32,000 bases of DNA from a virus, in IMG/VR virus record IMGVR_UViG_3300015608_001846, positions 30,001-62,000 of that record. One strand, given 5' to 3'. A program made the position numbers and the translations under genes. Each line of letters opens with the position of its first letter. Position 1 is the first letter of the stretch. Of this stretch, positions 7,643 to 32,000 are shown one piece after another. The notes below the pieces were generated by a model. That model made no database searches. It was not told the origin of the DNA and saw nothing but the letters and a program-made list of their open reading frames with translations.

Positions 7643-8739
7643 CACGACCTTTTGATCAAGCGCACTCGTTCACGCGAGCCCAGGCAAAGGTGACCGTCTG
7701 GACCCTTGTGTTCCTTGATCACCACCTTGTCAGTCGTCTTGACGACCCCGACGCTTTCTTTGCACAGACGACACTGTGCACGTCGACCCACTGATTCCGT
7801 GTGGGTTTTCTTGACGGGAGGGGTCGGCTGCCCAACGTCCATCTTCAGCGTCTCGCTATCACCATCAGCTTCACCCAACGGGTCCTCCAACTGTTGGTCG
7901 CTCTTGCGAGCTCGCTTGATGTGGGTATGCAGGAATTCACGGAAACCATCAAGGTCACGGACGATGTCCGGGTGGTCCTTCATCAATTGCACGTCAGCAG
8001 CTGTCAGCTCACCAGACTTGGACAGCAGCTTGATGTAGTCGTTCATCGCAGTCAACACCAGGATCTCGACCTCATCGGGATCCTCCAGTTGCATCTTACC
8101 GATCCACTGCGCCTTCAACAAGGCCTTGTCGACCGCCTGCTTGGCGCCGGCGACAGAAAATCCAAGCTCTTGAGCGATCTCCTCGAATGAGGAACCACCG
8201 ACGTCATTCATGTTACCGATGGCTGTTGACTTGTAGGCCCGGCCCTTCTTGGGCTCGTCGTCATCATCGTCATCATCCTCAATGCCACTCATGTCAGGTT
8301 CAATCCCGGAGTACGACATGTCTGATCGCAAGCCGATCTCGGCCAACGTCTTACGAATGGAACGGCGAATCGTCTCTTCGGTCACCGGCTTGTTGCTGTC
8401 TGCGATCTTCTTCATCTCGTCCTCTGCCTGTTGCGTTTCTGCTTTGTTCTCAATGTCATCAATGACGCCCTTGATGGCATCATACAGCTTCGGCACTCGT
8501 TCATTTGGAATGCCCTTGACCATGTTGCGAAACGTGACGTCGAGCTCTTGCTGCGTCTTCGGAACAAAGTCTGGATTGATTGGGTCAGTTTCATACGCCG
8601 ACGGGTCAACGACAGGATTTACATTGACGGGTTCTTCTTCGGGCACAGTGAGATCTCCCAAGTGACCACCGTCGAGCGCGCTTCGAACAAACTCACGCAA
8701 CGCGTTGTGACTGACGACGACACCTTTCATTGGTATCAC
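7642..8739 (-). CDS. hypothetical protein with sigma-70 region-4-like HTH, poly-Asp tract and C-terminal Cys/His cluster
   Basis: 365 aa from GTG 8739, or 362 aa from ATG 8730. SSFEEIAQELGFSVAGAKQAVDKALLKAQ resembles sigma region 4.2. The protein also has an EDDDDDDDEPKK tract and a C-terminal CRLCKESVG...HKGPDGHLC cluster. Confidence 0.45.
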   Translation of the reverse strand: MIPMKGVVVSHNALREFVRSALDGGHLGDLTVPEEEPVNVNPVVDPSAYETDPINPDFVPKTQQELDVTFRNMVKGIPNERVPKLYDAIKGVIDDIENKAETQQAEDEMKKIADSNKPVTEETIRRSIRKTLAEIGLRSDMSYSGIEPDMSGIEDDDDDDDEPKKGRAYKSTAIGNMNDVGGSSFEEIAQELGFSVAGAKQAVDKALLKAQWIGKMQLEDPDEVEILVLTAMNDYIKLLSKSGELTAADVQLMKDHPDIVRDLDGFREFLHTHIKRARKSDQQLEDPLGEADGDSETLKMDVGQPTPPVKKTHTESVGRRAQCRLCKESVGVVKTTDKVVIKEHKGPDGHLCLGSRERVRLIKRS

Positions 8740-12729: not shown

Positions 12730-13277
12730 CAGATCCCCCTCGCTAGCTCGTGAAACCGAGCCAAGAATCGGTTCTCGGCATGCAACGGATCCCAGGGCAC
12801 GATGTTGAAGTCATAGGGTTCAAAGACGGCTGACATGCCCATCGTGCGGCCCCTGTCAATTCGCATGTCCCTAGCCTCAGTGACCGTCATACGATTGTCG
12901 ACCAATTTTACTGCGGTCGGCTCGCCTTGTGTGAGGCCGAACACGTCGCAGATCACGTTCATCAGGTGCGTCTCTGCCTCGCGGTAGAACGCAAACCCGG
13001 GATCACGCTTGACGGGTGACGGTACGTCAGTCAAGTACGCTTCTGAGGCATCGTGTAGCAGGCCCCACAACTGCAGTTCAGGCGGGCACATCATTGACAC
13101 CAACACCGAGTGCTGTGCCACCGAGTAGAACCTCATCAGGTGTCCCGCGAACCTCGCTGCGTTCGACAAGGCATGAGCGATGTCAACGATGCTGACTTCA
13201 TCCTGACGTGGGTCAAGCGGCCAGAACTTGAGTCCCGTGTACGTGGTGATGTAATCACCTCTGCGTTGCTCTTCCAT
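12729..13277 (-). CDS. HD-domain phosphohydrolase, YfbR-type 5'-deoxynucleotidase-like
   Basis: 182 aa. YSVAQHSVLVS and LLHDASEAYLTDVPSPVK closely match the E. coli YfbR block YHDASEVLTGDLPTPVK as I recall it. Confidence 0.7.
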   Translation of the reverse strand: MEEQRRGDYITTYTGLKFWPLDPRQDEVSIVDIAHALSNAARFAGHLMRFYSVAQHSVLVSMMCPPELQLWGLLHDASEAYLTDVPSPVKRDPGFAFYREAETHLMNVICDVFGLTQGEPTAVKLVDNRMTVTEARDMRIDRGRTMGMSAVFEPYDFNIVPWDPLHAENRFLARFHELARGI

Positions 13278-14412
13278 GCAATTGCTTGAATAGTAGGCTC
13301 TCTCGGCGAGCTAGTTCAAGACCAATTTCTTTGCCCACGAACCCCTCACCCACCAGGTCCTGACCTTTCACCGTCAGCTCATAGCTAGCAAATGACATCA
13401 ACATCGGGAACGATGGCAGGCCTCTGTTTCCCTGTGCATCGAACAGCTCCTCGTCAGTCACACGCAACCTGTTCTGACAACGCTTAAGTTCGAACGCTGC
13501 ATTGGTCGCATCCAGGCCTGCCAGGCCCTTGAAAAAGCACGTTCGATCGATCTCGTCAACGGTGTACTTCAAGTCGTGTAAGACCTGGCTTATCTTTTTT
13601 CGAGAATCATTAAGAATCACTGACAGGACGACAGGAACATTCGATGACTCAGGTCCAGCACTTGGCGCATGTGTGTCAGGGACGAGGCGGACATCGAGCC
13701 CCGGAAAGACCTGAGACCACATCTTGAAGCGTTCTAGAAGCGACAGATAGCAACGGCTCGACGACGAACCCGTGACGCCTTTGACAAACTCGTCATGGAT
13801 GCGTTCGGCAGCTAGTTCACTCAGGTCGTTGTCTGCTTCGATGGCACTCGCAGTCGCTGGATCGATGGAGAACCCAAAGCGAGCAGCGAACCGCAGGGCA
13901 CGCATGACACGCAATCGATCCTCACGGAAACGATCAACCGGAACGCCAACCGTTCTCACAACGTGATTCCGAAGGTCGGCCAGTCCTCCGACCAGATCTA
14001 CGACCTCATTCGTTGCAAGGTCGTAAAACAATGCATTGATCGTCAGGTCACGACGCTTGACATCTTCATCGATCGAGGTGAACGTGACATGCTCCGGTCG
14101 ACGACCCTCACCATGATCGATCCTGAAAGTCGCAATGTCGTACTCTGCGTTGGATCCAACCAACTTAACAACACCAAACGACTTACCGACAGCGGAGATC
14201 GAAAACCCATCTATGTCGTGGAGAAGTTCAATGACGTCCGTTGGGTGCAGGTTCGTCGCTAGGTCAATGTCATCGTGAGGCAAACGCATCAACGCGTCTC
14301 TGACAGCACCTCCGACGAGGTATAGCTTCGCACCTGCACGTTTGAAACGTGCAGCGATTCTATCGATGTCGCTAGATAACGAAATATCAAACCGCGTCCG
14401 TGAAGCCGACAT
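13255..14412 (-). CDS. tRNA nucleotidyltransferase (CCA-adding enzyme / poly(A) polymerase family)
   Basis: 385 aa from ATG 14412 (track start TTG 14418). Class II head-domain motifs: LYLVGGAVRDALM, DDIDLAT, ATFR, RRDLTINAL. No HD domain in this ORF. Confidence 0.85.
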   Translation of the reverse strand: MSASRTRFDISLSSDIDRIAARFKRAGAKLYLVGGAVRDALMRLPHDDIDLATNLHPTDVIELLHDIDGFSISAVGKSFGVVKLVGSNAEYDIATFRIDHGEGRRPEHVTFTSIDEDVKRRDLTINALFYDLATNEVVDLVGGLADLRNHVVRTVGVPVDRFREDRLRVMRALRFAARFGFSIDPATASAIEADNDLSELAAERIHDEFVKGVTGSSSSRCYLSLLERFKMWSQVFPGLDVRLVPDTHAPSAGPESSNVPVVLSVILNDSRKKISQVLHDLKYTVDEIDRTCFFKGLAGLDATNAAFELKRCQNRLRVTDEELFDAQGNRGLPSFPMLMSFASYELTVKGQDLVGEGFVGKEIGLELARRESLLFKQLHGRATQR

Positions 14413-14455
14413 GGACAAATGTTACCACCTTTGGGTGGCTTTTACATGTTGGTGT

Positions 14456-17033: not shown

Positions 17034-18005
17034 TCACACTCTCAGCTTCAGCGTTCGAAACAAAGGCTCGTTGATGGCCCACTCGATCGTACGTTCTAAG
17101 CCATCTGAGAAAGAGACCAGGGGCCTGTACCCAAGGACCTGTTCTGCACGAGACACATCAGCCAACGTATGCATAACGTCTCCAGCACGCCACGGGGTTG
17201 ATTCGACTGTCGCGGCCGGGAATCGTAGCCGTAGCCTGTCGATGATCTCATTGTTAGTCACGCTCTCACCACACGCAACGTTGAAGGGCGCGCCCTTCAA
17301 CTCACCGTCGAATGAACCAGCTCGGATGCATGCATCGACGACGTTATCAACGTAACACATGTCACGTGACTGCGTCCCATCTCCGTCGCTCCGCATCGGT
17401 CGACCGTCGACGATGGCCGACAACCATGCTGAGACAGCGGTGGCATAAGGCGATGATCCCAACTGGTTCGGACCAAAGACGTTGAAGAACCGAAGACACG
17501 CTGAATCTAGACCGTAGAGCTCACTGTACAGTTTGAGGTACTGTTCAATGATCAGCTTTTGCAACGCATAAGGTGACTTTGGTTGCAAGGTTGAGTCTTC
17601 GTGCGTCGCCTGTCCGGCTTCGACGCCGCCGTACACAGAACTAGACGATGCAAACACAAGCCGCTTGACGTTACTTACACACGCATCCATCAACTTTAAG
17701 GTCTTGCTAACGTTGGTCTCGTTCGTCTCTAGAGGATGCTCTACAGAGTAACTGACACGTGGCACTGCTGCCAGGTGAAAGACAACGTCGTACTGCTTGC
17801 GTTTGACAGCGTTCAGTACAGAATCAGACGCAAAGTCACACCAGTGTGCGACCGTGGACGCATCCGTCAAAAACTCCCAACGACCGTTGCTGAGGTCGTC
17901 ACAACCAAAGACCTCCCAATCATCCAGGGTCTGCAATCGGTTAAACAAGTTGCTACCGATGAACCCCGCAGCCCCTGTGACCAGCGCTCTACGCCTCTTA
18001 CGCAT
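17034..18005 (-). CDS. NAD-dependent nucleotide-sugar epimerase/dehydratase (extended SDR)
   Basis: 323 aa. Rossmann motif LVTGAAGFIGSNL, FASSSSVYG, catalytic YxxxK (SPYALQK), and RFFNVFGP. This is closest by eye to 4-epimerase-type enzymes. Confidence 0.8.
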   Translation of the reverse strand: MRKRRRALVTGAAGFIGSNLFNRLQTLDDWEVFGCDDLSNGRWEFLTDASTVAHWCDFASDSVLNAVKRKQYDVVFHLAAVPRVSYSVEHPLETNETNVSKTLKLMDACVSNVKRLVFASSSSVYGGVEAGQATHEDSTLQPKSPYALQKLIIEQYLKLYSELYGLDSACLRFFNVFGPNQLGSSPYATAVSAWLSAIVDGRPMRSDGDGTQSRDMCYVDNVVDACIRAGSFDGELKGAPFNVACGESVTNNEIIDRLRLRFPAATVESTPWRAGDVMHTLADVSRAEQVLGYRPLVSFSDGLERTIEWAINEPLFRTLKLRV

Positions 18006-23266: not shown

Positions 23267-23821
23267 TCACTGCACCTGTTCGTAATTCACGTACGTGCCG
23301 TGGCAGCCTGTCCCAACACGTACGTGACCCAAGTGTTCGCAGAAGACCAGGTACTGCGCAGTCTCGTGTTCAATGACGACGATGGTGCCGGTTTCAGTCT
23401 CACCTTTTGCACGAGAAAAGGTGACCTGGTCACCGATGCGGTGCCTTGGCGTCACGTTGTTCGAGCGGACCCAGTCTTTCACGGTCTTGCGGTGGATCGC
23501 ATAGCGTTTGGCAGCCACCTCGCTCATCAGGTCGACAAGCCGAGCGTCGACGGTCCACGTCCGCGACTCAAGCGATCGACAGATCTCATACGCATCATCG
23601 GTGAGTTCAATCGACTCGATCAGGTCAGCTCGGACGTCGCTGATCATCTCCTCATCAAAGACGGTTGAGGCCGAATTGAGCTCAGACTTCAGGTATGCAA
23701 TCACCTTGGGCAACAAGGCCTCGACGGTCTCACGAGAGACCTCGAGGTCAAAAAGCGCTGGACGTTTGGGAGCAATCATGATCGATTTTACCTCGCATGG
23801 CGCGCCATGCACCATGTGCAC
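23267..23821 (-). CDS. hypothetical protein
   Basis: 184 aa from the track start GTG 23821; ATGs at 23815 and 23779. It overlaps the end of the GIY-YIG ORF. No family recognised. Confidence 0.55.
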   Translation of the reverse strand: MHMVHGAPCEVKSIMIAPKRPALFDLEVSRETVEALLPKVIAYLKSELNSASTVFDEEMISDVRADLIESIELTDDAYEICRSLESRTWTVDARLVDLMSEVAAKRYAIHRKTVKDWVRSNNVTPRHRIGDQVTFSRAKGETETGTIVVIEHETAQYLVFCEHLGHVRVGTGCHGTYVNYEQVQ

Positions 23822-24674
23822 ACGACTTGGTTGACAGCGCCAAGCGACCGTCGATGACCCTGTTCACTGTCGATGGTCGTACACCGCACGATGTCGCAAT
23901 TGTTCGCAGATCAACGCCTTGTGCATGCAGCCCCAGGATCTCAATCACCGGAACGACGAACTGTCGACTGTCGTCGTTGGCTATGCACTTGACTGCGTAG
24001 TAAGAAATGTTCCAAGCGTCAGCAACCTGACGCGGACTGTTTCCCAATGACGATAGCTGCGCCTTGACAGATTGAACGTCGGCAGGCACAACGACAACGT
24101 TTGATCTCTTGGAACCTAGGTGAGCCAGTGATCGTCGGCGGCGGGCTTCAGTCGTTCTCATCGATTCGCACATGAGGTCTCTGTTCGAGCGCCACTGCTC
24201 AGAGCACCGTTCGCTTCTGATCGTGCGAAGTTCTGCCGTGTACGAGCTGCCCACCGCACGAGAAAGCGATCGTTTGTACTCAGGTGAAGCACGAACAATT
24301 GTCATGTCGACCTTCGATAGGGACTCCTTTACGCGCCTTGAGATTTTCTGTCGAACCTCGAGCGTCGGCGAGCTACCTCCTAAACCTCCACTCGTTTCAT
24401 TGTAGAGGCGCTCTCCGGCGTCAGAGAGTTGCTCGCACAGCGCCATTTCAAAGGCGAAGGCTGACGGTTCATCGATGAAGCTTTGGACGATCGTCAGGTC
24501 AAAATTGGCACACCCATACGTCATGATCGCACGGTGAAATGTTAACGTCGATCCCTTCATGGCGTCGCGACAGTGTCGACGCCAGCGTCTGTGTGGATGG
24601 ATCGATTTTCCGACGTACTTGTGACCATTCGTCAGATTGGTCACAACGTAGACGAATGCCTCACGTTGTGACAT
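23748..24674 (-). CDS. free-standing GIY-YIG homing endonuclease (Seg/I-TevI-like)
   Basis: 308 aa. GIY-YIG core FVYVVTNLTNGHKYVGKS, RRWRRH, FEMALCE, LYNETSGG. NUMOD3-like repeats (SPTLEVRQKISRRV, SPEYKRSLSRAV) and a C-terminal HTH (GVDLRTIATSCGVRPSTVNRVI). Confidence 0.85.
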   Translation of the reverse strand: MSQREAFVYVVTNLTNGHKYVGKSIHPHRRWRRHCRDAMKGSTLTFHRAIMTYGCANFDLTIVQSFIDEPSAFAFEMALCEQLSDAGERLYNETSGGLGGSSPTLEVRQKISRRVKESLSKVDMTIVRASPEYKRSLSRAVGSSYTAELRTIRSERCSEQWRSNRDLMCESMRTTEARRRRSLAHLGSKRSNVVVVPADVQSVKAQLSSLGNSPRQVADAWNISYYAVKCIANDDSRQFVVPVIEILGLHAQGVDLRTIATSCGVRPSTVNRVIDGRLALSTKSCAHGAWRAMRGKIDHDCSQTSSAF

Positions 24675-25317
24675 CGTTTCTCGTGAAGACAGCGGTGTTT
24701 TTCCTGTAGAAGGAGGCCAGCTTCTTGATCTTTTGAAACGATGACGTCAATGCTTCGTCGTACAAGTAGCCCCTTCCAGTTAGGATCGGCACAACTTCAT
24801 CTTTGCCGCGGCAGTTGTAATGATGACGTCCCCACTGGCCTGGTTCCGCACACGACAGGATCAACGTCTTGGGTTTGAAGGCCAGCAGGTTGTCGATGAA
24901 GGTGGACTCGAACTCCTCAGGGATGTGCTCGTAGACCTCGAGCGACACGACCAGGTCGTATGAACTTTTCGTGTCGAGTTCCGACAGCGGCTTCGTCAGA
25001 TCGTGGCACAAGTAACACTCTGGCGGGATCGCGAGCATCGCCTCCGCGCCAGTCGAAAAATCGATCCCGAGGACCTTCTTTTTCTCGACGAGGGGCACCA
25101 AAAAGTCGCCGCAACCGCAGCCTACATCGACGATCGAATCAAACTGCAGGTTCTGCTCGAGCCACTCAGCGTAGTGCGCGATGCCCTTGTCGTAATACTT
25201 CCGGTGCTTCTCGTAGAAGCCAACATCATACGTTTCCGATTCTTTCTGTGGGTCCCAACCCTTGTAGCGCTTGGACTTGGCAACCTTCTTGACGAGCTTT
25301 TGCGTGTCTTCAGACAT
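24661..25317 (-). CDS. class I SAM-dependent methyltransferase
   Basis: 218 aa. Motif I IVDVGCGCGDF, motif II VLGIDFS, and DLVVSLEVYEHI. No DNA-methyltransferase DPPY or PCQ motif seen. Confidence 0.75.
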   Translation of the reverse strand: MSEDTQKLVKKVAKSKRYKGWDPQKESETYDVGFYEKHRKYYDKGIAHYAEWLEQNLQFDSIVDVGCGCGDFLVPLVEKKKVLGIDFSTGAEAMLAIPPECYLCHDLTKPLSELDTKSSYDLVVSLEVYEHIPEEFESTFIDNLLAFKPKTLILSCAEPGQWGRHHYNCRGKDEVVPILTGRGYLYDEALTSSFQKIKKLASFYRKNTAVFTRNDVTT

Positions 25318-25403: not shown

Positions 25404-26504
25404 TCACGTTATCTCCTTCACGCGCCACATCGTGGTCGAGAACCCGTAGTCGTTGCGGTCGACCTCGCCCAACACCAGCGCATATGCCGGGAATTCCCGG
25501 ATGCCGTCCCAACCCCACGCATTCATCCGGTACGTCCGACCCTCGGGTCCCTGCACCGTCAACAGGAGGTACTGCTTGCCGTTCTTTGTCTTCTTTGGTT
25601 TGGCCTCCATGATGACAAACCAGTAGATGTCGCGCTTGTCCCAGTCATCGACTGAACGAACGCCCTTCTCTAGGAGGCGATCGATGAGCTCAGGTTCGAC
25701 CATCGTCAACACGTCGAAGCTACCGAAAGCCTCGATCTTGTGCTCAGCAAGCTCCCGGCGCGTCCACTCTTCTTCAAACTCTTCAGCCAACGCACGAGCC
25801 AGCGCATAGAAGTTCTTGCGACCCTCGTGCGGGTCCTTCTTTGATGTCCGTTTGATGAGGGTCGCATGGTCACGGATGCGCTCGACGATCTCGTCGGAAC
25901 CCTTGCGCCTGGGTACCTCCTCGGTATAGGAACCCATCAACGTCTCATGCATGTGCCTGTACGACTTGAAGACCTTGTCAGGACCGACGCACCCTAGAGA
26001 GTCAAAGGCACGGATCTTGATGAGCACCTCGAGCGCCTTGCGGTTGAACTTCGACGGGCGCCAGCTGCCGTCCTCGTTCCACAGCACGTCCTCGATCGAG
26101 GCGTACGGGCGACTGGAGACGATCTCTTCGGCGGCTGTCTGTCCGATTCCCTTGCACGACAGCAGGCTGGGCATCAACCGCTTGCCGGGCAGCACTGTCC
26201 ACCCCAGTCCGGCCTCGTTGATGTCGATGGGTACGATGGTGTAACCTAGCTGCTTCACCTCGCTGAAGGCCTTCGCTTTCTTGTCGGGCGAGTTTGACAT
26301 AGATTCGATGTAGGCTGTGATCCACTGTTCCTCGTGGTACGTCATCAACCAGGCACACCAGAACGAATCGATTGCGTACGCCACTGCGTGGCTGTTCGAC
26401 GTCAACATGCCGTTGGCAAGGTAGAACTGGTGATCTGGATGCTCGACCTCGAGGTCGAACGTCTGGTGTTTACCTACCGGAGTGATTGACTTGATGTTTG
26501 TCAT
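25404..26504 (-). CDS. dnaE: split-intein C-half (b) fused to DNA polymerase III alpha C-terminal piece (fragment 4)
   Basis: 366 aa. It begins MTNIKSITPVGKHQTFDLEVEHPDHQFYLANGMLTSN, then SHAVAYAIDSFWCAWLMTYH (DnaE block KSHaaAYa...lk.hyP). Helix-hairpin-helix-like and OB-fold-like regions follow (KRDIYWFVIMEAKPKKTKNGKQYLLLTVQGPEG). ATGA overlap with the upstream ORF. Confidence 0.85.
   Translation of the reverse strand: MTNIKSITPVGKHQTFDLEVEHPDHQFYLANGMLTSNSHAVAYAIDSFWCAWLMTYHEEQWITAYIESMSNSPDKKAKAFSEVKQLGYTIVPIDINEAGLGWTVLPGKRLMPSLLSCKGIGQTAAEEIVSSRPYASIEDVLWNEDGSWRPSKFNRKALEVLIKIRAFDSLGCVGPDKVFKSYRHMHETLMGSYTEEVPRRKGSDEIVERIRDHATLIKRTSKKDPHEGRKNFYALARALAEEFEEEWTRRELAEHKIEAFGSFDVLTMVEPELIDRLLEKGVRSVDDWDKRDIYWFVIMEAKPKKTKNGKQYLLLTVQGPEGRTYRMNAWGWDGIREFPAYALVLGEVDRNDYGFSTTMWRVKEIT
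26394..26504 (-). mobile_element. split intein b, C-terminal half (37 aa)
   Basis: Blocks F/G: TFDLEVEHPDHQFYLANGMLTSN, followed by +1 Ser. The size and pattern resemble known IntC fragments. The penultimate residue is Ser rather than His. Confidence 0.75.
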
Positions 26505-26770
26505 TTCTTGACGTCTCTGACCAATGCCTCTAGCCTCTTGGATGCCCTGCGTCGTTGGGCCTTGTCACACTGTTCGTCACAGTAATCATCGGAGGGCTCG
26601 AGTTCAACAGCCACAGGAGGGCACCGCAACCTCATCGCGTGCTGCAGAAGCTCGATGGGCGACAGGCCCATCCTGGCAGAGATGTCATTCAGCGCTTCTT
26701 CAAACGAAGGTCGCTGCATAGGCCTCTCCGATTCGATGGACGCCCGGCTTTGGATCGCGCAGGTGTTCAA
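26501..26770 (-). CDS. small hypothetical protein inside intein-b gap
   Basis: 89 aa from the track start; ATG 26719 gives 72 aa (MQRPSFEEALNDISARMGLSPIELLQHAM...). Its stop overlaps the ATG of the IntC-b ORF. Confidence 0.45.
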   Translation of the reverse strand: MNTCAIQSRASIESERPMQRPSFEEALNDISARMGLSPIELLQHAMRLRCPPVAVELEPSDDYCDEQCDKAQRRRASKRLEALVRDVKK

Positions 26771-27737
26771 AGAGCTGTTTCAGGCACTCATCACTGAACT
26801 TGCCACCGTCCTTGTACGAAAACTGGTCGTAGGAGATGCGAATCAACGTCATTTCCTGCTTGACGACAGCTTCATCAAGTTCACGGTCGCGGACCCTCGC
26901 GTTATTTAGCGTTTCATCACCTTTGATGGGTTGGAAGTGGTACTTGCCATCGAACTCAATGATGATGTTCGTGTCCCAATTCGCCAAATCAACCTGCTTT
27001 CGTCGTGATTTAGACGTGATGCACACATCATGCAAGCGTTGATTCTGCTTAAACCCGGCATCGATGCTCATGACAACGTTTGCCAACACAAGCTCGGGCT
27101 TGCTGTGCCACGTTGAGTGCATCGCCTTCACGCACTTTTCATAGAAGACGTCAAAGTTTTCTGTTCGCCAACGCGCGAGGCGTTCAGCGCGGGCAGCCAT
27201 GATTTCCGGCCGTGCCGATGTTCTTTTTGCCGTGTTTCTTGACAGCTGACGTGCTGCTTCAGTCTTGTTATTTGCTGTCATCTGAGCAGATCGACGCGCG
27301 CGTTCTTTTGGATTTGCAAGGATTGCCGCGCTGACCGCTGCTCCCATCTTGGCTTTGTACTCTGTCAGATCATCGCCACGTTCTTTGGCGCGCCTGAGCC
27401 AGGCAAAATTCTGACCACGATTCTTGAATCGAACGCTTGACGTGTCGGACGTCAATTTTGCATCAGGGAATTGCATGACGTAAGTTTCTTTGCTAACGCC
27501 ATGCGTTTGTGTCAGGTGCTTACTGAGCGTCTTTGCTTTCAATCCACACAACCTACAGGTGACACGATCGTCACCTTCTTGCGAGACGCACCCTTCGATG
27601 TGTTTCTGGCACGACGTTTTGTACTTGAAGTTGCGGCCGCATCGTTCACAACGATGCTTAGGTTCCGTTTTTGTATCAACCACAGGGGCAACATCTCCCC
27701 CGTTTCCCTTGTTCGGAACTTGTGATCCCACGTGCAC
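26700..27737 (-). CDS. zinc-finger + Vsr-like nuclease, candidate homing endonuclease (intein b gap)
   Basis: Up to 345 aa. No ATG precedes the first finger; candidate starts are GTG 27737, 27731 or 27683. C2H2-like fingers: CERCGRNFKYKTSCQKHIEGC and CRLCGLKAKTLSKHLTQTH. The C-terminal VDLANWDTNIIIEFDGKYHF...RVRDRELDEAVVKQEMTLIRISY parallels E. coli Vsr PDIVFP..AIFVHGCFWHGH...RDRRD...GWRVLIVWE. Confidence 0.65.
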   Translation of the reverse strand: MHVGSQVPNKGNGGDVAPVVDTKTEPKHRCERCGRNFKYKTSCQKHIEGCVSQEGDDRVTCRLCGLKAKTLSKHLTQTHGVSKETYVMQFPDAKLTSDTSSVRFKNRGQNFAWLRRAKERGDDLTEYKAKMGAAVSAAILANPKERARRSAQMTANNKTEAARQLSRNTAKRTSARPEIMAARAERLARWRTENFDVFYEKCVKAMHSTWHSKPELVLANVVMSIDAGFKQNQRLHDVCITSKSRRKQVDLANWDTNIIIEFDGKYHFQPIKGDETLNNARVRDRELDEAVVKQEMTLIRISYDQFSYKDGGKFSDECLKQLFEHLRDPKPGVHRIGEAYAATFV

Positions 27738-27943
27738 TTTACTTTTTCTCCGGTGTTCAGCTCAACCTCAACCAGATCAAGAACACCATGATCGTGTTTC
27801 GATTTGACAGTGACGATTACGTTTTCACCTGTCTTTTCATCGCGCGTCATGACAAGATCGCCAGCTTCAACGTGCTGAAGCTGTTTGGTTGTGATGACTC
27901 TACCATCCAAATTATAAATATTCACTAGTTCTGAAAAGTGACA
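27539..27943 (-). mobile_element. split intein b, N-terminal half
   Basis: It starts at Cys codon 27941..27943: CHFSELVNIYNLDGRVITTKQL (block A) and TWDHKF (block B, TxxH). About 100 aa look intein-like. A ~30-aa basic tail then runs on to the stop while overlapping the endonuclease ORF in another frame. Confidence 0.75.
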
Positions 27944-28315
27944 GGACTTATTGAACCCATACCCAGCGAAGTAGAGTATCTTGTCGTACAGGTTGTTCGC
28001 GACTGCCTCGGTGTAACCGTTCTTGACGCACCCCTTGACGAAGCCATCACGGGTCTCCTGAGCTGCCTTCTTGGCAGCCTCACCGCCTGAGATGCTGCGC
28101 TTCATGATGGCGCGACGCACTTCGTCGCACTTGTCCTTCGGAAAGCCGGCGACCTTTTCAGCGAGTTCCATCACTTGCTCCTGAAATATTATACAGTTAT
28201 GCACGAGAAGGCCATTTGCGAAGAAGTTGTGGTTCTTCTTGATCTGGATGTCGTACACAAGCTGTGCAGGCGCGCGTTTGATTGCGCGAATCTTGACAGG
28301 AACTACGTCAGGCAT
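27539..28315 (-). CDS. dnaE: split-intein C-half (a) + DNA polymerase III alpha fragment 3 + split-intein N-half (b)
   Basis: 258 aa from ATG 28315 (ATGCCTGA overlap with the upstream stop; alternative ATG 28342, track start TTG 28345). It begins MPDVVPVKIRAIKRAPAQLVYDIQIKKNHNFFANGLLVHN. Then comes CIIFQEQVMELAEKVAGF..VRRAIMK..FAGYGFNKS (DnaE blocks YQEQVM, RRAMGKK, FAgYGFNKS). Then CHFSELVNIYNLDGRV...KCTWDHKF. Confidence 0.85.
   Translation of the reverse strand: MPDVVPVKIRAIKRAPAQLVYDIQIKKNHNFFANGLLVHNCIIFQEQVMELAEKVAGFPKDKCDEVRRAIMKRSISGGEAAKKAAQETRDGFVKGCVKNGYTEAVANNLYDKILYFAGYGFNKSCHFSELVNIYNLDGRVITTKQLQHVEAGDLVMTRDEKTGENVIVTVKSKHDHGVLDLVEVELNTGEKVKCTWDHKFRTRETGEMLPLWLIQKRNLSIVVNDAAATSSTKRRARNTSKGASRKKVTIVSPVGCVD
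28196..28315 (-). mobile_element. split intein a, C-terminal half (40 aa)
   Basis: LVYDIQIKKNHNFFANGLLVHN followed by +1 Cys (codon 28193..28195). Blocks F/G are canonical. Confidence 0.8.
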
Positions 28316-28790
28316 CGTCCACCTCGACAATATCGAACTCATCAAAACAACACACTTCTTGATCGAGCTTGCCGTCTTTCAACCCTTCGAAAAGACCTGA
28401 ACCAGTGCTACGATTGTAGAACATCGCATCATTGTCACGATAGTCGTCAATGAGTTTCACCTCAGTCCCAGCATCGAACCATTCATCGGGACGAGAAATG
28501 TATTTGACACGCTTAATTGGCTGGAGAGTTGCAGATGAAAAGAAGCCTTCAGCCCCATCACGCATCATCTTGACGTGAACAATTCTCTCGTTAAGATGAT
28601 CTGTTTGCAGGCGTTCACCCTCGTCAACTAGCCTGATCACATTGGGACATGCAGTCGTCTTCTCTATCCATAGTGGGTCAAGAGGCGACGGATGGTGTGG
28701 ACACGCACGCCAGTCGTGTTGACGTTGACGCTCGAGCAGGCAAAACACACCTGTCAAGTGCGTGTAACAAACAACGTAATCCCTCATCAT
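28308..28790 (-). CDS. hypothetical protein inside intein-a gap
   Basis: 160 aa. ATGA overlap with the upstream ORF, and its stop overlaps the IntC-a start. No family recognised. Confidence 0.55.
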   Translation of the reverse strand: MMRDYVVCYTHLTGVFCLLERQRQHDWRACPHHPSPLDPLWIEKTTACPNVIRLVDEGERLQTDHLNERIVHVKMMRDGAEGFFSSATLQPIKRVKYISRPDEWFDAGTEVKLIDDYRDNDAMFYNRSTGSGLFEGLKDGKLDQEVCCFDEFDIVEVDDA

Positions 28791-29215
28791 TCACACTCCT
28801 GTTCGCGATGCATTAAGCACGCAGCACATATATCGCGGCCAGGTATTGACGTCCAAAATTGCTCGCGGCAATCAACACACGTTTGAGGCTGGCTCATAAG
28901 CAACTTCGTTGCTACACTGTGTGATGACATAGAACGAGACAACGCATCAGCGTCCAACACAACGCGACACGGGTTGATCTTTGTAGCTAGTGAAGATGCG
29001 CACAGTTGACACACGGGTCCGTGAACGTCAAGCACACGTTGCCCGTGATATTCAAGTTCCATTTCGTTTCCCACTTCCTCGTAAGCCCTGAACGTATCGA
29101 ACCAATCGGCGTACGTAAGGTCATCACGCTTTCCCACTTCAACATGTGACTTCATCGTGTTGATGAAGTTTTGAAATGACGTAAGCAATTCCTTCTCAAA
29201 GTCCTCGATTTTCAT
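28787..29215 (-). CDS. Cys-rich hypothetical protein inside intein-a gap
   Basis: 142 aa. Cys pairs CQLC..C and CVDC...CAAC suggest a zinc ribbon. No family recognised. Confidence 0.55.
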   Translation of the reverse strand: MKIEDFEKELLTSFQNFINTMKSHVEVGKRDDLTYADWFDTFRAYEEVGNEMELEYHGQRVLDVHGPVCQLCASSLATKINPCRVVLDADALSRSMSSHSVATKLLMSQPQTCVDCREQFWTSIPGRDICAACLMHREQECE

Positions 29216-29217
29216 GT

Positions 29218-29958
29218 CTAAATTGTCCTCAATTTGTGTGGGTAGTACAAGGCCTCAGAAGCCCACACTCGCCTGACAATGTAACCTAACATTTCTGCTG
29301 TTCTAGTATATGACTCGTCTAGACGATACTGTCGCTTCATCTTTGGCATCAATTCATGTTTGGTTGAGTTACCATGCCAATAGTCGCCATCAAACTCTAC
29401 GAGAATGTTCTCATTTGGAACGTAAAAATCAAACTCATGATTGATGCCATCAACGCGATGCTTGTGAACGACGTTGTCACCATGTATCTCAATCATCTTT
29501 GTTTTGAATGAAAGTTCAGCTTCAGAATTTCTCTTCCTCGGTTTTTGAGTTTCAAGTCCCGCGCTTGTCTTTCGAGAATGTTCTTCAAAGAACCCTGGCG
29601 TGTGTGATCTCATGTGCCAGGTCAACCCTCGTTGTCGCTTACAAATCTTTCCGCACACTTCACAAACAACAGATTTCTGCTCTTCTGTCGCTGAACAGTA
29701 TGATCGATGCGAACGCAGCGACGTGTTAGATGTGAAAACCTTGCCACACGCATCGCACGGAAATTCCCCTTCTTTCCTGACGTTCTCACGGAGTTTAGCA
29801 ACGTTGAGTTTAGCAACGTGTTCGTCTGTGAACTTTCGACCTTTGTACGTTTGACGACGCCACTCCGACAGGCACCTGATGCTACACGCAACTGAACGAT
29901 CATTTCTTGTTGAGTACGTCTTTCCGCACGTTTGACACTGCTTCTCCAGCTTGCTCAT
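29218..29958 (-). CDS. zinc-finger + Vsr-like nuclease, candidate homing endonuclease (intein a gap)
   Basis: 246 aa from ATG 29958 (track start GTG 30048). Fingers: CQTCGK..C..C, CDACGKVFTSNTSLRSHRSYC and CEVCGKICKRQRGLTWHMRSH. The C-terminal HEFDFYVPNENILVEFDGDYWHGN...RLDESYTRTAEMLGYIVRRVWASE parallels Vsr PDIVFP..IFVHGCFWHGH...RDRRD..L...GWRVLIVWE. Confidence 0.7.
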   Translation of the reverse strand: MSKLEKQCQTCGKTYSTRNDRSVACSIRCLSEWRRQTYKGRKFTDEHVAKLNVAKLRENVRKEGEFPCDACGKVFTSNTSLRSHRSYCSATEEQKSVVCEVCGKICKRQRGLTWHMRSHTPGFFEEHSRKTSAGLETQKPRKRNSEAELSFKTKMIEIHGDNVVHKHRVDGINHEFDFYVPNENILVEFDGDYWHGNSTKHELMPKMKRQYRLDESYTRTAEMLGYIVRRVWASEALYYPHKLRTI

Positions 29959-30280
29959 CTTCCAGCGCTGCTCCTGAAAGATAAGTATAGTCTTTGATCG
30001 ACACAATTTCGTCATCAAGCGTAAGTTGTCCAGCCTCAATCCAGCCACGTTGAGTCATGACGAGGTGATCAGAGGTGAGTTTAATGACACCAATGTCAGT
30101 GTCAAGCTCAATCACGTCTTTCATGCCATTGCATACTGCGGCGACAATTACATCCTGTTCGAGCTCACCAGTCTCTTCATTATACGAAGGAAGCGTGACA
30201 CCGATCATCTGATCGTCAACGATCTCTTTGATCGTGATTTCGCCTTCATCGGTCATGACCTTTGCATCGCCAGTCAAGCA
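29900..30280 (-). mobile_element. split intein a, N-terminal half
   Basis: It starts at Cys codon 30278..30280: CLTGDAKVMTDEG (block A) and LTSDHLV (block B). It is 126 aa to the stop. The last ~20 aa overlap the endonuclease ORF start at 29958. Confidence 0.8.
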
Positions 30281-30637
30281 CGAGTACGTCTTCTTCAGGA
30301 TCTCGTTGATTCGTGGGTCACCCCACTCCAGCTCCTTGCCAGCCCTTGCTTCCAAGTAAAGCTTGTCAACGTTTGCCGCGAGAGGTCCAGGTCGGTAGAT
30401 CGACGTCAGCGTCGCTATGTCAATGATGCTCTTCGGTTTGGCCTTGACGAACAGCCTTTGCGCACCTGAAGAGGTGAGCTGGAAGATGCCTGCCCACTTG
30501 GCCTTTTCATACACCTCATACGGAGATCGGTCGTTGAAGTCGATGACATCGGGAGACATGTGCCGCTCGTACCAGTCCTTGATGTCGGCGAACGTGGGTT
30601 TGCACTTCGAAATGTCAGTGACCTTGGTCGGTTTCAT
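29900..30637 (-). CDS. dnaE: DNA polymerase III alpha fragment 2 + split-intein N-half (a)
   Basis: 245 aa. ATG 30637 has its own AGGAG 3 nt upstream. VIDFNDRSPYEVYEKAKWAGIFQLTSSGAQRL and IATLTSIYRPGPL..ILKKTYS match DnaE blocks (ip.dD..t...l....t.GvFQlES.G, aLyRPGP, eTYG). Then CLTGDAKVMTDEGEITIKEI...IKLTSDHLV. Confidence 0.85.
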   Translation of the reverse strand: MKPTKVTDISKCKPTFADIKDWYERHMSPDVIDFNDRSPYEVYEKAKWAGIFQLTSSGAQRLFVKAKPKSIIDIATLTSIYRPGPLAANVDKLYLEARAGKELEWGDPRINEILKKTYSCLTGDAKVMTDEGEITIKEIVDDQMIGVTLPSYNEETGELEQDVIVAAVCNGMKDVIELDTDIGVIKLTSDHLVMTQRGWIEAGQLTLDDEIVSIKDYTYLSGAALEDEQAGEAVSNVRKDVLNKK

Positions 30638-31655
30638 GGACTCCTACGCTGGACTGTCGATCGGTCCCGTCTGGGTTTGACGATTCATCGATGGGTGCTA
30701 GCCCAGCGGGAGCGTACCGCCAGCGACACCCATCGTACACTCGACTGGCACGGATGATGTTTAGCATCGTCGACTTGCTGATCCCGAGGTGCCTCTGGGC
30801 CGCCGACGCTGAGACGAACACCGCGACGATCGATCCTTCGTCATTGATCTGGTGCACGCACTTCGAGCGGGCCGCCGACAGCAGCGCCTTCGTCTCACCA
30901 GAGAGCCTGCGACCCTTCAACGATCGTGAGATGATCGATCTTGTTTCATCTGAGTGGCCCGGGCGCTCCCGTATGGTCGAGCGCGCCCACGACCGACGAC
31001 CGTCCCCTGGAACCGTTGAGCTCGGGCGACGGCCCGACAGGATCGCAGACATGTGAGCGCGGCTGACGCCCGCTGCGCGAGCAGCATCGGACACGGAATC
31101 GTGCACGGCGACGACATTGCCGTCGAGGTCAAACTCGATGACCTGGGTGCAATTGATTCGACGGTGGTTCTGCTGGCGTTTGGCCCTGACGAGGCCCAAG
31201 CGCTCGATGCGATGGCCTGCGATCTCTTGCGCCTTCCGGCCCGAGCTCGTCGACAGCCTACCGACGATCTCAGCGGCCACGCCGAGGTACTGGGCTGCCG
31301 CTGCCGTCGACTCGAACGTCAATCGATCTCCGGCCGGCGTCCACAGCGCGATGGGCACCCGATTGATCCCCGACAGACCGGCGCCCCCTGTCGTCATGTT
31401 GCTTGCGATGTCTGACGCCAGCGGATCAGCGACGAACGTGTGAAGTTCACTGACCAGCCTCCTCTCCTCGGAAAATGCAAGTTCTTCACTGTCGGTCGAT
31501 ACCACGATGCGCCTGTCCAGGCCCAACGCTGCTGAAATTGCAGCGTGCTTCCTGTTACGTCTGACGTTCAGAACGCGTGACGGGCTTCCTTTGCCCACGT
31601 AGTATGCACGCGGCTGCTCTTCCTTCGTGTAGTCGACATATACGCAGAATTTCAT
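30615..31655 (-). CDS. GIY-YIG homing endonuclease inserted between dnaE fragments 1 and 2
   Basis: 346 aa. ATG 31655 lies in an ATGA overlap with the fragment-1 stop. GIY-YIG core CVYVDYTKEEQPRAYYVGKGS, RRNRKH, EERRLVSE. DNA-binding modules follow: IEFDLDGNVVAVHDSVSDAARAAGVSRAHMSAIL, HSDETRSIISRSLKGRRLSGETKALLSAA (NUMOD3-like) and INDEGSIVAVFVSASAAQRHLGISKSTMLNII. Confidence 0.85.
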   Translation of the reverse strand: MKFCVYVDYTKEEQPRAYYVGKGSPSRVLNVRRNRKHAAISAALGLDRRIVVSTDSEELAFSEERRLVSELHTFVADPLASDIASNMTTGGAGLSGINRVPIALWTPAGDRLTFESTAAAAQYLGVAAEIVGRLSTSSGRKAQEIAGHRIERLGLVRAKRQQNHRRINCTQVIEFDLDGNVVAVHDSVSDAARAAGVSRAHMSAILSGRRPSSTVPGDGRRSWARSTIRERPGHSDETRSIISRSLKGRRLSGETKALLSAARSKCVHQINDEGSIVAVFVSASAAQRHLGISKSTMLNIIRASRVYDGCRWRYAPAGLAPIDESSNPDGTDRQSSVGVHETDQGH

Positions 31656-32000
31656 CGATGTTCAAGCGGAAATCGGAGATCATCATCGACGGTCACAGCA
31701 GCTACAGCCTTCCAGGATCCGTCCTCGAGCATGACTTCTGCGGTGCTCTTCAACCTATGCACCTCGCCTGAAAGCTCGATCTCAACAAGTCCGACCTGTC
31801 TTTCTTTTTGGATGATGAGTTCGATTGTCCGCTCAATGAGTCGCAAAGTTTCTAGACCCAGTAGGTCGTATTTGATGAAATTGCCGATGTACTCGAGGTG
31901 CTTGAAGTTGACGCCCTCGACCCAGGGCGACTGTGGTTCGCCGCCGGAACAGATCAGTGGCATCTTCGACGGCAGGTCATCGCAGATGAGGACACCGCCG
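31652..32000 (-). CDS. dnaE: DNA polymerase III alpha fragment 1 (5' part lies beyond the window end)
   Basis: The frame is open to position 31999: GGVLICDDLPSKMPLICSGGEPQSPWVEGVNFKHLEYIGNFIKYDLLGLETLRLIERTIELI parallels E. coli HAGGVVIAP..APLY......[28 protein letters not shown]. A 49-aa non-DnaE tail follows before the stop at 31652. Confidence 0.8.
   Translation of the reverse strand, partial: GGVLICDDLPSKMPLICSGGEPQSPWVEGVNFKHLEYIGNFIKYDLLGLETLRLIERTIELIIQKERQVGLVEIELSGEVHRLKSTAEVMLEDGSWKAVAAVTVDDDLRFPLEHR

Follow-up and report, generated by a model that had tools for sequence, protein, structure and literature searches.

How a replicative DNA polymerase can be made from a gene that lies in pieces is the question raised by one end of a 32,000-nucleotide stretch of viral DNA (positions 30,001 to 62,000 of the IMG/VR record IMGVR_UViG_3300015608_001846), hereafter called the window. 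Between positions 25404 and 32000, the minus strand carries a run of open reading frames (ORFs), the majority of which overlap or abut, and among them are successive parts of dnaE, the gene of the alpha subunit of DNA polymerase III (Pol III alpha). The region probably comes from a jumbo phage (~323 kb) and holds the 3' two-thirds of its dnaE, a gene in which five sites have been colonised by intein/homing-endonuclease elements, with the protein being rebuilt by trans-splicing. Coordinates are those of the whole window, and all features of the dnaE locus given below lie on the minus strand and are read downward from 32000. The relatives used for comparison comprise 31 IMG/VR loci from viral contigs of ~4-370 kb, and 120 homologues of the third piece. 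The four pieces of the gene in the window, with their polymerase segments (exteins) and intein halves, are as follows.

Open at the window end, stop codon 31652-31654, minus strand: piece 1, which is the end of piece C in the full gene.
31799..32000, minus strand: piece 1 extein, cut by the window end, with the C-terminal end ...RLIERTIELIIQKER (translation and alignment to E. coli Pol III alpha 514-580).
31655..31798, minus strand: tail of 48 amino acids (aa), QVGLVEIELS...RFPLEHR, after the last extein residue of piece 1 (hhalign, AlphaFold).
29900-30637, minus strand: ORF of piece 2 (piece D of the full gene).
30602..30637, minus strand: 12-aa head of piece 2, MKPTKVTDISKC, extra in alignment with L004 and L010-L013, which are uninterrupted here.
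30281..30601, minus strand: piece 2 extein, first part of the fingers, ending ...EILKKTYS (DNA_pol3_finger, 8.4e-21, profile positions 8-116; PDB alignment).
29903..30280, minus strand: intein 1 N-half, CLTGDAKV...LTSDHLV..., 126 aa, stop 29900-29902 (Intein_splicing, 1.2e-5 alone).
27539-28315, minus strand: ORF of piece 3 (piece E of the full gene).
28196..28315, minus strand: intein 1 C-half, MPDVVPVK...NHNFFANGLLVHN, 40 aa (Intein_splicing profile positions 117-155, Pfam).
27947..28195, minus strand: piece 3 extein, second part of the fingers, CIIFQEQVM...YFAGYGFNK, 83 aa (DNA_pol3_finger positions 113-165; PDB alignment).
27542..27946, minus strand: intein 2 N-half, S-CHFSELV...CTWDHKF...SIVVND plus a 33-aa extension, stop 27539-27541 (Npu DnaE homology).
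25404-26504, minus strand: ORF of piece 4 (piece F of the full gene).
26394..26504, minus strand: intein 2 C-half, MTNIKSITPVGKHQTFDLEVEHPDHQFYLANGMLTSN, 37 aa (aligns with Npu DnaE-C, IKIATRKYLGKQNVYDIGVERDHNFALKNGFIASN).
25407..26393, minus strand: piece 4 extein, SHAVAYA..., helix-hairpin-helix (HhH) domain and C-terminal region, 329 aa, stop 25404-25406 (HHH_6, 1.2e-10; E. coli alignment to residue 892).

The original prediction, made from the letters of the window, had recognized four minus-strand ORFs with successive Pol III alpha blocks, and the ORF list, the Pfam matches and the alignment to the E. coli protein agree with it. The Pfam profile DNA_pol3_finger is matched at consecutive positions, 8-116 by piece 2 and then 113-165 by piece 3; in addition, HHH_6 was found in piece 4 and Intein_splicing in piece 3. 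The concatenated exteins had been expected to align contiguously to Pol III alpha. When joined, they cover residues 514-580 and 588-892 of the E. coli protein (E = 7e-41), and the TYS|CIIFQEQ junction is gap-free. The second junction is likewise contiguous if it is read as GFNK|SHA, but the boundary GFNKS proposed earlier gives one residue too many. The order of domains is that of a C-family polymerase, with PHP and DNA_pol3_alpha in pieces A-C of the full gene (locus L042), the fingers in D and E, and HHH_6 in F, and the PDID motif of the palm (PDxD) is present. The 'OB-fold-like tail' ascribed to piece 4 was not borne out, since a profile search with its C-terminal ~195 aa gave no match, to an OB domain or otherwise.

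Piece 2 runs into the N-half of an intein at site b (the D-E junction), and piece 3 is preceded by the matching C-half. The joined halves of this intein 1 match Intein_splicing over the full length of the profile (5e-17, Pfam) and, among solved inteins, the Spl DnaX mini-intein (5e-19) and NrdJ-1 (1.5e-12). The residues of a class 1 intein are present, namely C1, LTSDH (TxxH), VHN and C+1. The start of the C-half was placed by homology to the proteins P0001 and P0002 and by sequence, and a GAGGTG ribosome-binding site lies upstream of it. The ratio of nonsynonymous to synonymous substitution rates (dN/dS) is 0.05-0.19 for the N-half and 0.13 for the C-half.

Piece 3 runs in turn into a second N-half, at site c (the E-F junction), and piece 4 is preceded by the corresponding C-half. 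The best PDB matches of the joined intein 2 halves are to Npu DnaE (4kl5/2keq, 2e-11), with 36% identity over 98 aa. The natural break coincides in the two inteins (...SIVVND | MTNIK in intein 2 and ...DNLPN | MIKIA in Npu DnaE), and both end in S-N. The C-half alone scores only E = 0.14, yet it aligns residue for residue with Npu DnaE-C; its dN/dS is 0.04. The catalytic residues are S1 (or C2), CTWDH (TxxH), TSN and S+1. As judged by alignment, the nearest solved relative of intein 2 is thus the Npu/Ssp DnaE intein. The contrast that had been drawn with the classic cyanobacterial DnaE intein holds for the distance between the halves, only 1 kb here, but not for descent, since intein 2 is its relative. 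All four intein halves obtained the expected HINT support from profile or PDB matches, mainly as joined halves, and the half-to-half distances, estimated earlier as ~1.6 kb and 1.0 kb, were measured as 1.58 kb for intein 1 and 1.03 kb for intein 2.

The N-half of intein 2 had been taken to begin at Cys (CHFSELV). With that boundary the spliced protein would read GFNKS+SHAVAYA, which has one surplus residue compared with GFNK-SHSAAYA of E. coli, and the intein-free close relatives read GFNKSHAVAYA; the N-extein therefore most likely ends at GFNK. Among 68 related protein clusters, the first two residues of intein c are Ser-Leu in 31, Cys-Phe, Cys-Leu or Cys-Val in 22, Thr-Cys in nine, Ser-Cys in five and Ser-Val in one. 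All these starts share one register, so the homologous first residue in the window, which is of the Ser-Cys type, is Ser. The most likely first residue of intein 2 is thus this Ser (SCHFSELV), which directly precedes the Cys. The Thr-Cys and Ser-Cys starts leave two readings: the Thr or Ser acts as the nucleophile, or the splice junction has moved along by one residue, so that the Cys takes this role. A Thr at position 1, as in the nine Thr-Cys clusters (at the place of window positions 27944-27946), would be very unusual.

The upstream part of the gene is found on a 322,887-bp viral contig in ENA (L038/L042), which contains a sequence exactly identical to piece 4 and differs from the window by one mismatch in 16,597 bases (99.994% identity). 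On this contig, the full gene consists of six co-directional pieces, A-F, with four split inteins and one intein-less break, and takes up 11.4 kb for ~1,220 extein residues. Of these, the window contains the end of C and all of D-F, and the remaining two pieces and two split inteins lie upstream. The original count of two naturally split inteins and a third break is thus right for the window, and the full gene enlarges it to four split inteins and six pieces. The pieces added by the contig are the following.

L042: piece A, 566 aa, ending ...LVGPGRG|CFVPETRV...
L042: piece B, 165 aa, an intein C-half, a 33-aa extein and an intein N-half.
L038/L042: piece C, 291 aa, an N-terminal intein C-half followed by SGAPDIDTDL..., with the same end as piece 1.

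In each of the two upstream gaps there is one gene that resembles an endonuclease and weakly matches the PD-(D/E)XK type. At none of the five junctions does the full gene show a gap when aligned to uninterrupted homologues 70-73% identical. Among GenBank phage records, no near-identical one was found by megablast, and tblastn retrieved only distant DnaE genes (identity <= 35%).

Between the pieces in the window lie further genes and one RNA element.

30615..31655, minus strand: endonuclease-like gene in the gap between pieces 1 and 2 (break 0), 346 aa (NUMOD1, 1.6e-7; I-HmuI_NUMOD-like, 4e-7; NUMOD3; Pfam).
29954..29985, minus strand: 12-bp RNA hairpin enclosing part of the ribosome-binding site and the start codon of the next gene.
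29218..29958, minus strand: gap-b free-standing gene of a predicted homing endonuclease, 246 aa, with C2H2 zinc fingers and a Vsr-like/EDxHD nuclease domain (zf-C2H2, 1.4e-11, Pfam; Vsr, 0.005, NCBIfam).
28787..29215, minus strand: 142-aa ORF in gap b, no significant profile match; the sole PHROG match is marginal (E = 0.0088) and to a family without known function.
28308..28790, minus strand: 160-aa ORF in gap b, no family match; its stop overlaps the start of piece 3.
26700..27737, minus strand, start uncertain between 27737 and 27476: gap-c endonuclease-like gene (ROS_MUCR, 8.4e-6, Pfam).
26501..26719, minus strand: 72-aa ORF in gap c, whose stop overlaps the ATG of piece 4 (ATGA).

Both split inteins of the window thus have a free-standing predicted endonuclease gene between their halves on the same strand, and the expectation of endonuclease and other ORFs in the gaps is confirmed by two endonuclease-like genes and three small ORFs without assigned function. 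This is the 'fractured gene' arrangement that had been proposed: a broken DnaE-type gene, two breaks with matching intein halves, and free-standing endonuclease genes between them. The gap-b gene starts within the end of the intein 1 N-half, in another frame. Its product is predicted to be a Vsr-like/EDxHD homing endonuclease. By sequence, only its zinc fingers matched PDB entries, and the nuclease fold was recognized through a structure model (AlphaFold; predicted local distance difference test score, pLDDT, 91), for which Foldseek returned Vsr (1cw0/1vsr, probability 1.0) and I-Bth0305I (3r3p, probability 1.0, template modelling score 0.61). Residues E148, D190, H195 and D214 are invariant in ~30 homologues, which fits the EDxHD motif, and several homologues are named 'very-short-patch-repair endonuclease' by the Joint Genome Institute. 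The C2H2 zinc-finger array lies N-terminal to the nuclease domain; a NUMOD/helix-turn-helix DNA-binding region as in I-Bth0305I was not found in this protein, zinc fingers being there instead. One related protein, P0097 (175 aa, 4 contigs), is an in-frame fusion in which the C-terminal nuclease domain of the Vsr-like endonuclease follows the intein-b C-half and 60 residues from the start of extein E. It could be a dead allele, or the endonuclease may have been inserted within the extein.

The C-terminal domain of the gap-c protein matches phrog_559 (1.2e-12) and phrog_9084, 'homing endonuclease' (5.6e-7), PHROG families annotated as homing/HNH endonucleases. In its long form, the gene encodes two zinc fingers in a second frame over the end of the intein 2 N-half, an overlap also seen in L007, and hhalign indicates homology between this pair and the zinc fingers of the Vsr-like endonuclease (probability 85%). 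The break-0 protein has I-TevI-type DNA-binding modules, and its C-terminal part only matches the NCBIfam group I intron endonuclease (1.5e-6). Its N-terminal 125-159 aa, where the catalytic domain would lie, gave no match in Pfam, PHROGs or PDB; a GIY-YIG-like motif is visible there by eye only and matches no profile. As to the small ORFs, a homologue of the 142-aa ORF is present in gap b of L001, where the endonuclease is absent, and a homologue of the 72-aa ORF occupies the same position in L001, after the gap-c endonuclease gene; these two ORFs (28787-29215 and 26501-26719) travel with the insertions.

Break 0 had been described simply as a third break. It is indeed present and has no working intein, but it is not a plain break, as a decayed remnant of an intein N-half appears to lie there. 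L004 is uninterrupted at this position (...ELILIKEGNPKPTFDDIK...), and the window has the 48-aa tail on piece 1 and the 12-aa head on piece 2. Homologous tails occur at the same break in L001, L009 and the metagenome proteins P0121-P0124, and ~30 clusters of piece-2-like proteins begin at the break 0 point. A profile of the seven tails, compared by hhalign with a profile of 11 intein N-halves, gave a probability of 96.3% (E = 1.9e-9, template columns 51-91). The tails align to the last 40 columns of the N-halves, from the strand before block B through the split point, and the TxxH residues are gone. An AlphaFold model of the tail has four beta strands (pLDDT 84-91); inteins make up 10 of its top 20 Foldseek matches, each individually non-significant (E > 1). 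We read the tail as a decayed remnant, or fossil, of the N-half of a fifth split intein, extending from block B to the split point. A placement at the intein N-terminus, prompted by 'CLYGDEEVETSNRG' in P0121, was dropped, as hhalign put the tail on the block-B-to-split-point region. The break 0 gap of L001 contains a different endonuclease gene (501 aa) and that of L009 contains none; in L009, a TAAATA motif stands just upstream of the GTG start of the downstream piece.

How, then, would the protein be rebuilt? Most neighbouring starts and stops overlap or abut, in the window part at every junction, and this suggests a single transcript with coupled translation of the pieces. ATGA start/stop overlaps occur at two junctions (piece 1 with the break-0 endonuclease gene, and the 72-aa ORF with piece 4), and the ribosome-binding sites of pieces 2 and 3 sit inside the preceding ORFs, that of piece 2 (AGGAG, followed by ATG) within the 3' end of the break-0 endonuclease ORF. 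The hairpin at the start of the Vsr-like endonuclease gene has a minimum free energy of -19.3 kcal/mol and a z of -1.6 in the window; L004 preserves it with a G-U change, and in L036 z reaches -4.4. No comparable hairpin was found at the other two endonuclease genes.

By protein trans-splicing, intein 1 would join ...KKTYS to CIIFQEQ... and intein 2 would join ...GYGFNK to SHAVAYA...; over the full gene, four mutually dissimilar split inteins would join A-B, B-C, D-E and E-F. The predicted spliced products read exactly as the uninterrupted homologues. Piece E begins with the intein 1 C-half and, after its extein, ends with the intein 2 N-half. Inteins b and c must therefore be orthogonal, because piece E would circularise if its own halves reacted together. 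Identity is only 25% between inteins b and c and 20-35% among the four intein N-halves, and the charges of b and c are opposite (intein b -17/+4, intein c +4/-2); the low identity and the charge pattern are consistent with orthogonality. At break 0 no splicing is possible, and the flanking parts therefore most likely stay separate chains. An N-terminal chain with PHP, palm and thumb and a ligated C-terminal one with the fingers, HhH and C-terminus probably associate non-covalently, and the fossil tail on piece C may help the two dock. Meanwhile, the endonuclease genes would keep and spread the insertions by homing into empty alleles during co-infection. That the phage operates a natural assembly line, with six polypeptides, four orthogonal split inteins acting at once and a fifth junction held by a docking-only fossil intein, is a tentative proposal, whose chances we put a little below even.

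Docking could also be all that the intein halves still do. They would then no longer splice but hold the pieces together non-covalently, and the polymerase would consist of up to six chains. Break 0 shows that the lineage tolerates a break without a working intein, the fossil intein tail is conserved, and Ser1/Ser+1 inteins are usually slower than Cys-dependent ones. However, inteins b and c and dozens of relatives keep all catalytic positions (Cys/Ser1, TxxH, terminal Asn, Cys/Ser+1), and the same residues have decayed at break 0, where splicing has been lost. Selection thus appears to act on the splicing chemistry where it is still used, and docking without splicing is unlikely.

At break 0 itself, a self-splicing intron with an endonuclease ORF might be considered, the tail and the head being intron read-through. 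The insertion of ~1.2 kb has the size of a group I intron with such an ORF, the ORF matches 'group I intron endonuclease' DNA-binding modules, and many small group I introns occur in huge phages (PMC12880540). Nevertheless, Rfam intron models gave no match in the window, at the gathering threshold or at E <= 5, nor in the endonuclease-free break 0 of L009. The endonuclease ORF begins at the stop of piece 1 and ends 14 nt short of the point at which extein sequence returns, so that no intron core is left free, and piece 2 has a ribosome-binding site and ATG of its own. In addition, the tail is conserved as protein, with a beta-strand pattern in seven divergent sequences and a confident predicted fold, and the gap of L009 (positions 8413-8700) holds an apparent 77-aa ORF, read by eye, on the opposite strand. 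An intron at break 0 is very improbable on these grounds, and a split intein that has decayed is the preferred reading of this break.

If mobile elements broke the gene, its sites should differ from relative to relative, and the presence and absence of insertions, site by site, is the pattern that mobile elements produce. An uninterrupted dnaE with an essentially full-length alignment was found in 20 of the 31 loci, of which four are L010-L013 and 16 are more distant (L015-L021, L023-L024, L026-L031, L033). Three others show no break in the alignment but are cut short or not mapped to the end (L025, L032, L034). A single break, at site b, is present in L006, L008 and L022; L009 has break 0 only, and L007 has three breaks. 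L004 lacks break 0 and intein c and has inteins a and b, and L035 has two in-frame contiguous insertions, near residues 215 and 475. At the other extreme, L001 and L005, which lie on one contig (IMGVR_UViG_3300037010_002844, 309 kb), together show ~seven breaks and ~eight dnaE pieces. One ORF of L001 (418-1155) consists of an intein C-half, a 7-residue extein, SGAPDID, with the catalytic palm aspartates, and the N-half of another intein. Among the 120 homologues of piece 3, intein c is absent in ~22, inteins a and b are absent in ~23, and contiguous mini-inteins occupy sites a or b in P0025, P0056 and P0061. The layout had been called rare. This did not hold up, as ~40 clusters among these homologues share the architecture of piece 3 with an extein between a C-half and an N-half, and public metagenome assemblies of a jumbo-phage lineage commonly show the arrangement. 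Two uninterrupted loci, L011 and L012, have Cys at position +1 of site b (KKTNS|CIIFQEQ), and others have Leu or Ala there; an intein may once have occupied the site and been lost precisely, leaving this Cys as a footprint, or the site may be pre-adapted for homing.

A gene that holds five insertions, and in which one intein is already degenerate, might also be taken for a decaying pseudogene full of selfish elements, in a phage that relies on another polymerase. But no extein has a frameshift or an internal stop, catalytic motifs such as PDID and GFNKSH are intact, and relatives as distant as ~50% identity retain the same pieces. dN/dS is 0.03-0.28 for the exteins (0.03-0.10 for that of piece 3) and 0.04-0.19 for the intein halves, so that both are under purifying selection. 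The low values therefore argue against a pseudogene, which we consider highly improbable, and for working inteins. Lastly, the data are metagenome assemblies, but an assembly chimera can be dismissed because, besides the near-identity of the window to the 323-kb contig over 16.6 kb, the same gene order occurs in at least six separately named assemblies (ENA ERZ27282949, ERZ17987011 and ERZ27282887; Logan SRR6837571, SRR6837557 and SRR14932657).

The observations behind the preferred reading, a dnaE gene broken by intein/homing-endonuclease elements and rebuilt by trans-splicing, are the anatomy, the homologies, the site-by-site presence and absence among relatives, and the purifying selection. 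Several points weigh against it. Splicing, orthogonality and assembly are all inferred steps, as are co-transcription and homing, and a promoter/terminator scan of the coding strand found nothing above the shuffled background. Break 0 leaves the polymerase as two chains, parted within the segment that joins thumb to fingers. The link between tail and inteins comes from small alignments (7 and 11 sequences) and from Foldseek matches of which none was significant, and the catalytic domain of the break-0 endonuclease matches no profile or PDB entry. In addition, either Ser1 or the Cys at position 2 could count as the first residue of intein 2, and the synonymous rate is saturated in several of the dN/dS comparisons.

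The rest of the window (1-25400) resembles phage DNA, and almost all of its long ORFs are on the minus strand. They include a tRNA nucleotidyltransferase gene (13255-14418) and a nucleotide-sugar epimerase gene (17034-18005); many large ORFs have no PHROG match, and no tRNA genes were found. A free-standing GIY-YIG homing endonuclease gene (308 aa, 23748-24674, minus strand) overlaps a methyltransferase gene (24661-25317). It is present in L038, L039 and L043 and absent in the close relative L036, in which the methyltransferase gene is directly followed by the next gene.

As an extreme case, this locus indicates how far selfish elements can break up an essential gene that is still under selection. 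For protein engineering, its split inteins would come as sets in which orthogonality in vivo is already required. Variants in the relatives, with a Ser-Leu start and Ser+1, use no catalytic cysteine, and few efficient split inteins without cysteine are available (PMC12707363).

Fractured genes were defined by Dassa, London, Stoddard, Schueler-Furman & Pietrokovski 2009 (PMC2677866), whose examples include the ocean-metagenome loci DnaE-1, -2 and -3, compared here by description only. Like those loci, the present one has a replication enzyme interrupted by split-intein halves that flank a free-standing gene of a predicted homing endonuclease, one coding strand with some overlapping frames, a Vsr-like endonuclease and a phage origin; the hairpin at the start of the gap-b endonuclease gene may be a further common trait, and DnaE-1 already has an extra in-frame C-intein part (PMC2677866). 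Unlike them, it shows the whole gene and its genome context, with six pieces, four split inteins and one fossil in a 323-kb phage; its Vsr-like endonuclease has C2H2 zinc fingers rather than NUMOD, and there are extra small ORFs in the gaps. The relatives provide a series of stages (empty site, contiguous mini-intein, split intein with or without an endonuclease gene, fossil intein), which matches the gene-breaking model of Dassa et al. and can be tested site by site.

The EDxHD (Vsr-like) homing endonuclease motif is that of I-Bth0305I, described by Taylor et al. 2011 (PMC3239194). The gap-b endonuclease shares with I-Bth0305I the C-terminal Vsr-fold nuclease domain and the conserved E, D, H and D, but it has N-terminal C2H2 zinc fingers instead of NUMOD/helix-turn-helix, and its gene lies inside a split intein rather than in a group I intron. 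Break 0 resembles the nrdA gene of Aeromonas phage Aeh1, which is split by mobE and in which, according to Crona et al. 2011 (PMC3045599), contact is helped by sequence of mobile-element origin. As there, and as in the T4-like split gp43, an endonuclease gene cuts an essential gene without an intein, and the products would associate non-covalently, as is reported for those cases. In contrast to Aeh1, the candidate docking sequence here is a split-intein remnant, and the endonuclease gene at break 0 varies or is absent among the relatives.

Among large phages, PolB of Pseudomonas phage MIJ3 is a single fractured gene in an isolated jumbo phage (PMC6892783), and widespread gene fragmentation is known from the Jug huge phages (PMC12880540). 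The resemblance to our case is that an endonuclease gene with intein halves on either side splits polymerase genes of large phages and that gene fragmentation is widespread; the published cases have one split intein per gene, or chiefly group I introns, and neither paper has several split inteins per gene. Among the top-ranked results of a literature search, whose coverage is incomplete, no gene needing several split inteins and no fossil split intein at a conserved break was described. Taken singly, each fracture in the locus belongs to a kind already known; what is new is their multiplicity and the fossil intein.

The cyanobacterial split DnaE (Ssp/Npu) shares with intein 2 the host protein, the split point and a C-terminus of S-N rather than H-N. 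The insertion site is different: that of cyanobacterial DnaE-n/DnaE-c, Y|CFNK (the AEY/CFN junction), lies four residues upstream of GFNK|SHA. The nucleophiles also differ, being putatively Ser1/Ser+1 in intein 2 and Cys1/Cys+1 in cyanobacteria, and the intein 2 halves stand 1 kb apart with an endonuclease gene between them, whereas the cyanobacterial halves are at distant loci without one. The kinship of intein 2 with Npu/Ssp DnaE bears on the origin of the cyanobacterial split DnaE. If the reading is true, a Ser1/Ser+1 cousin of the Npu intein, four residues from the cyanobacterial site, would link phage fractured genes to that origin.

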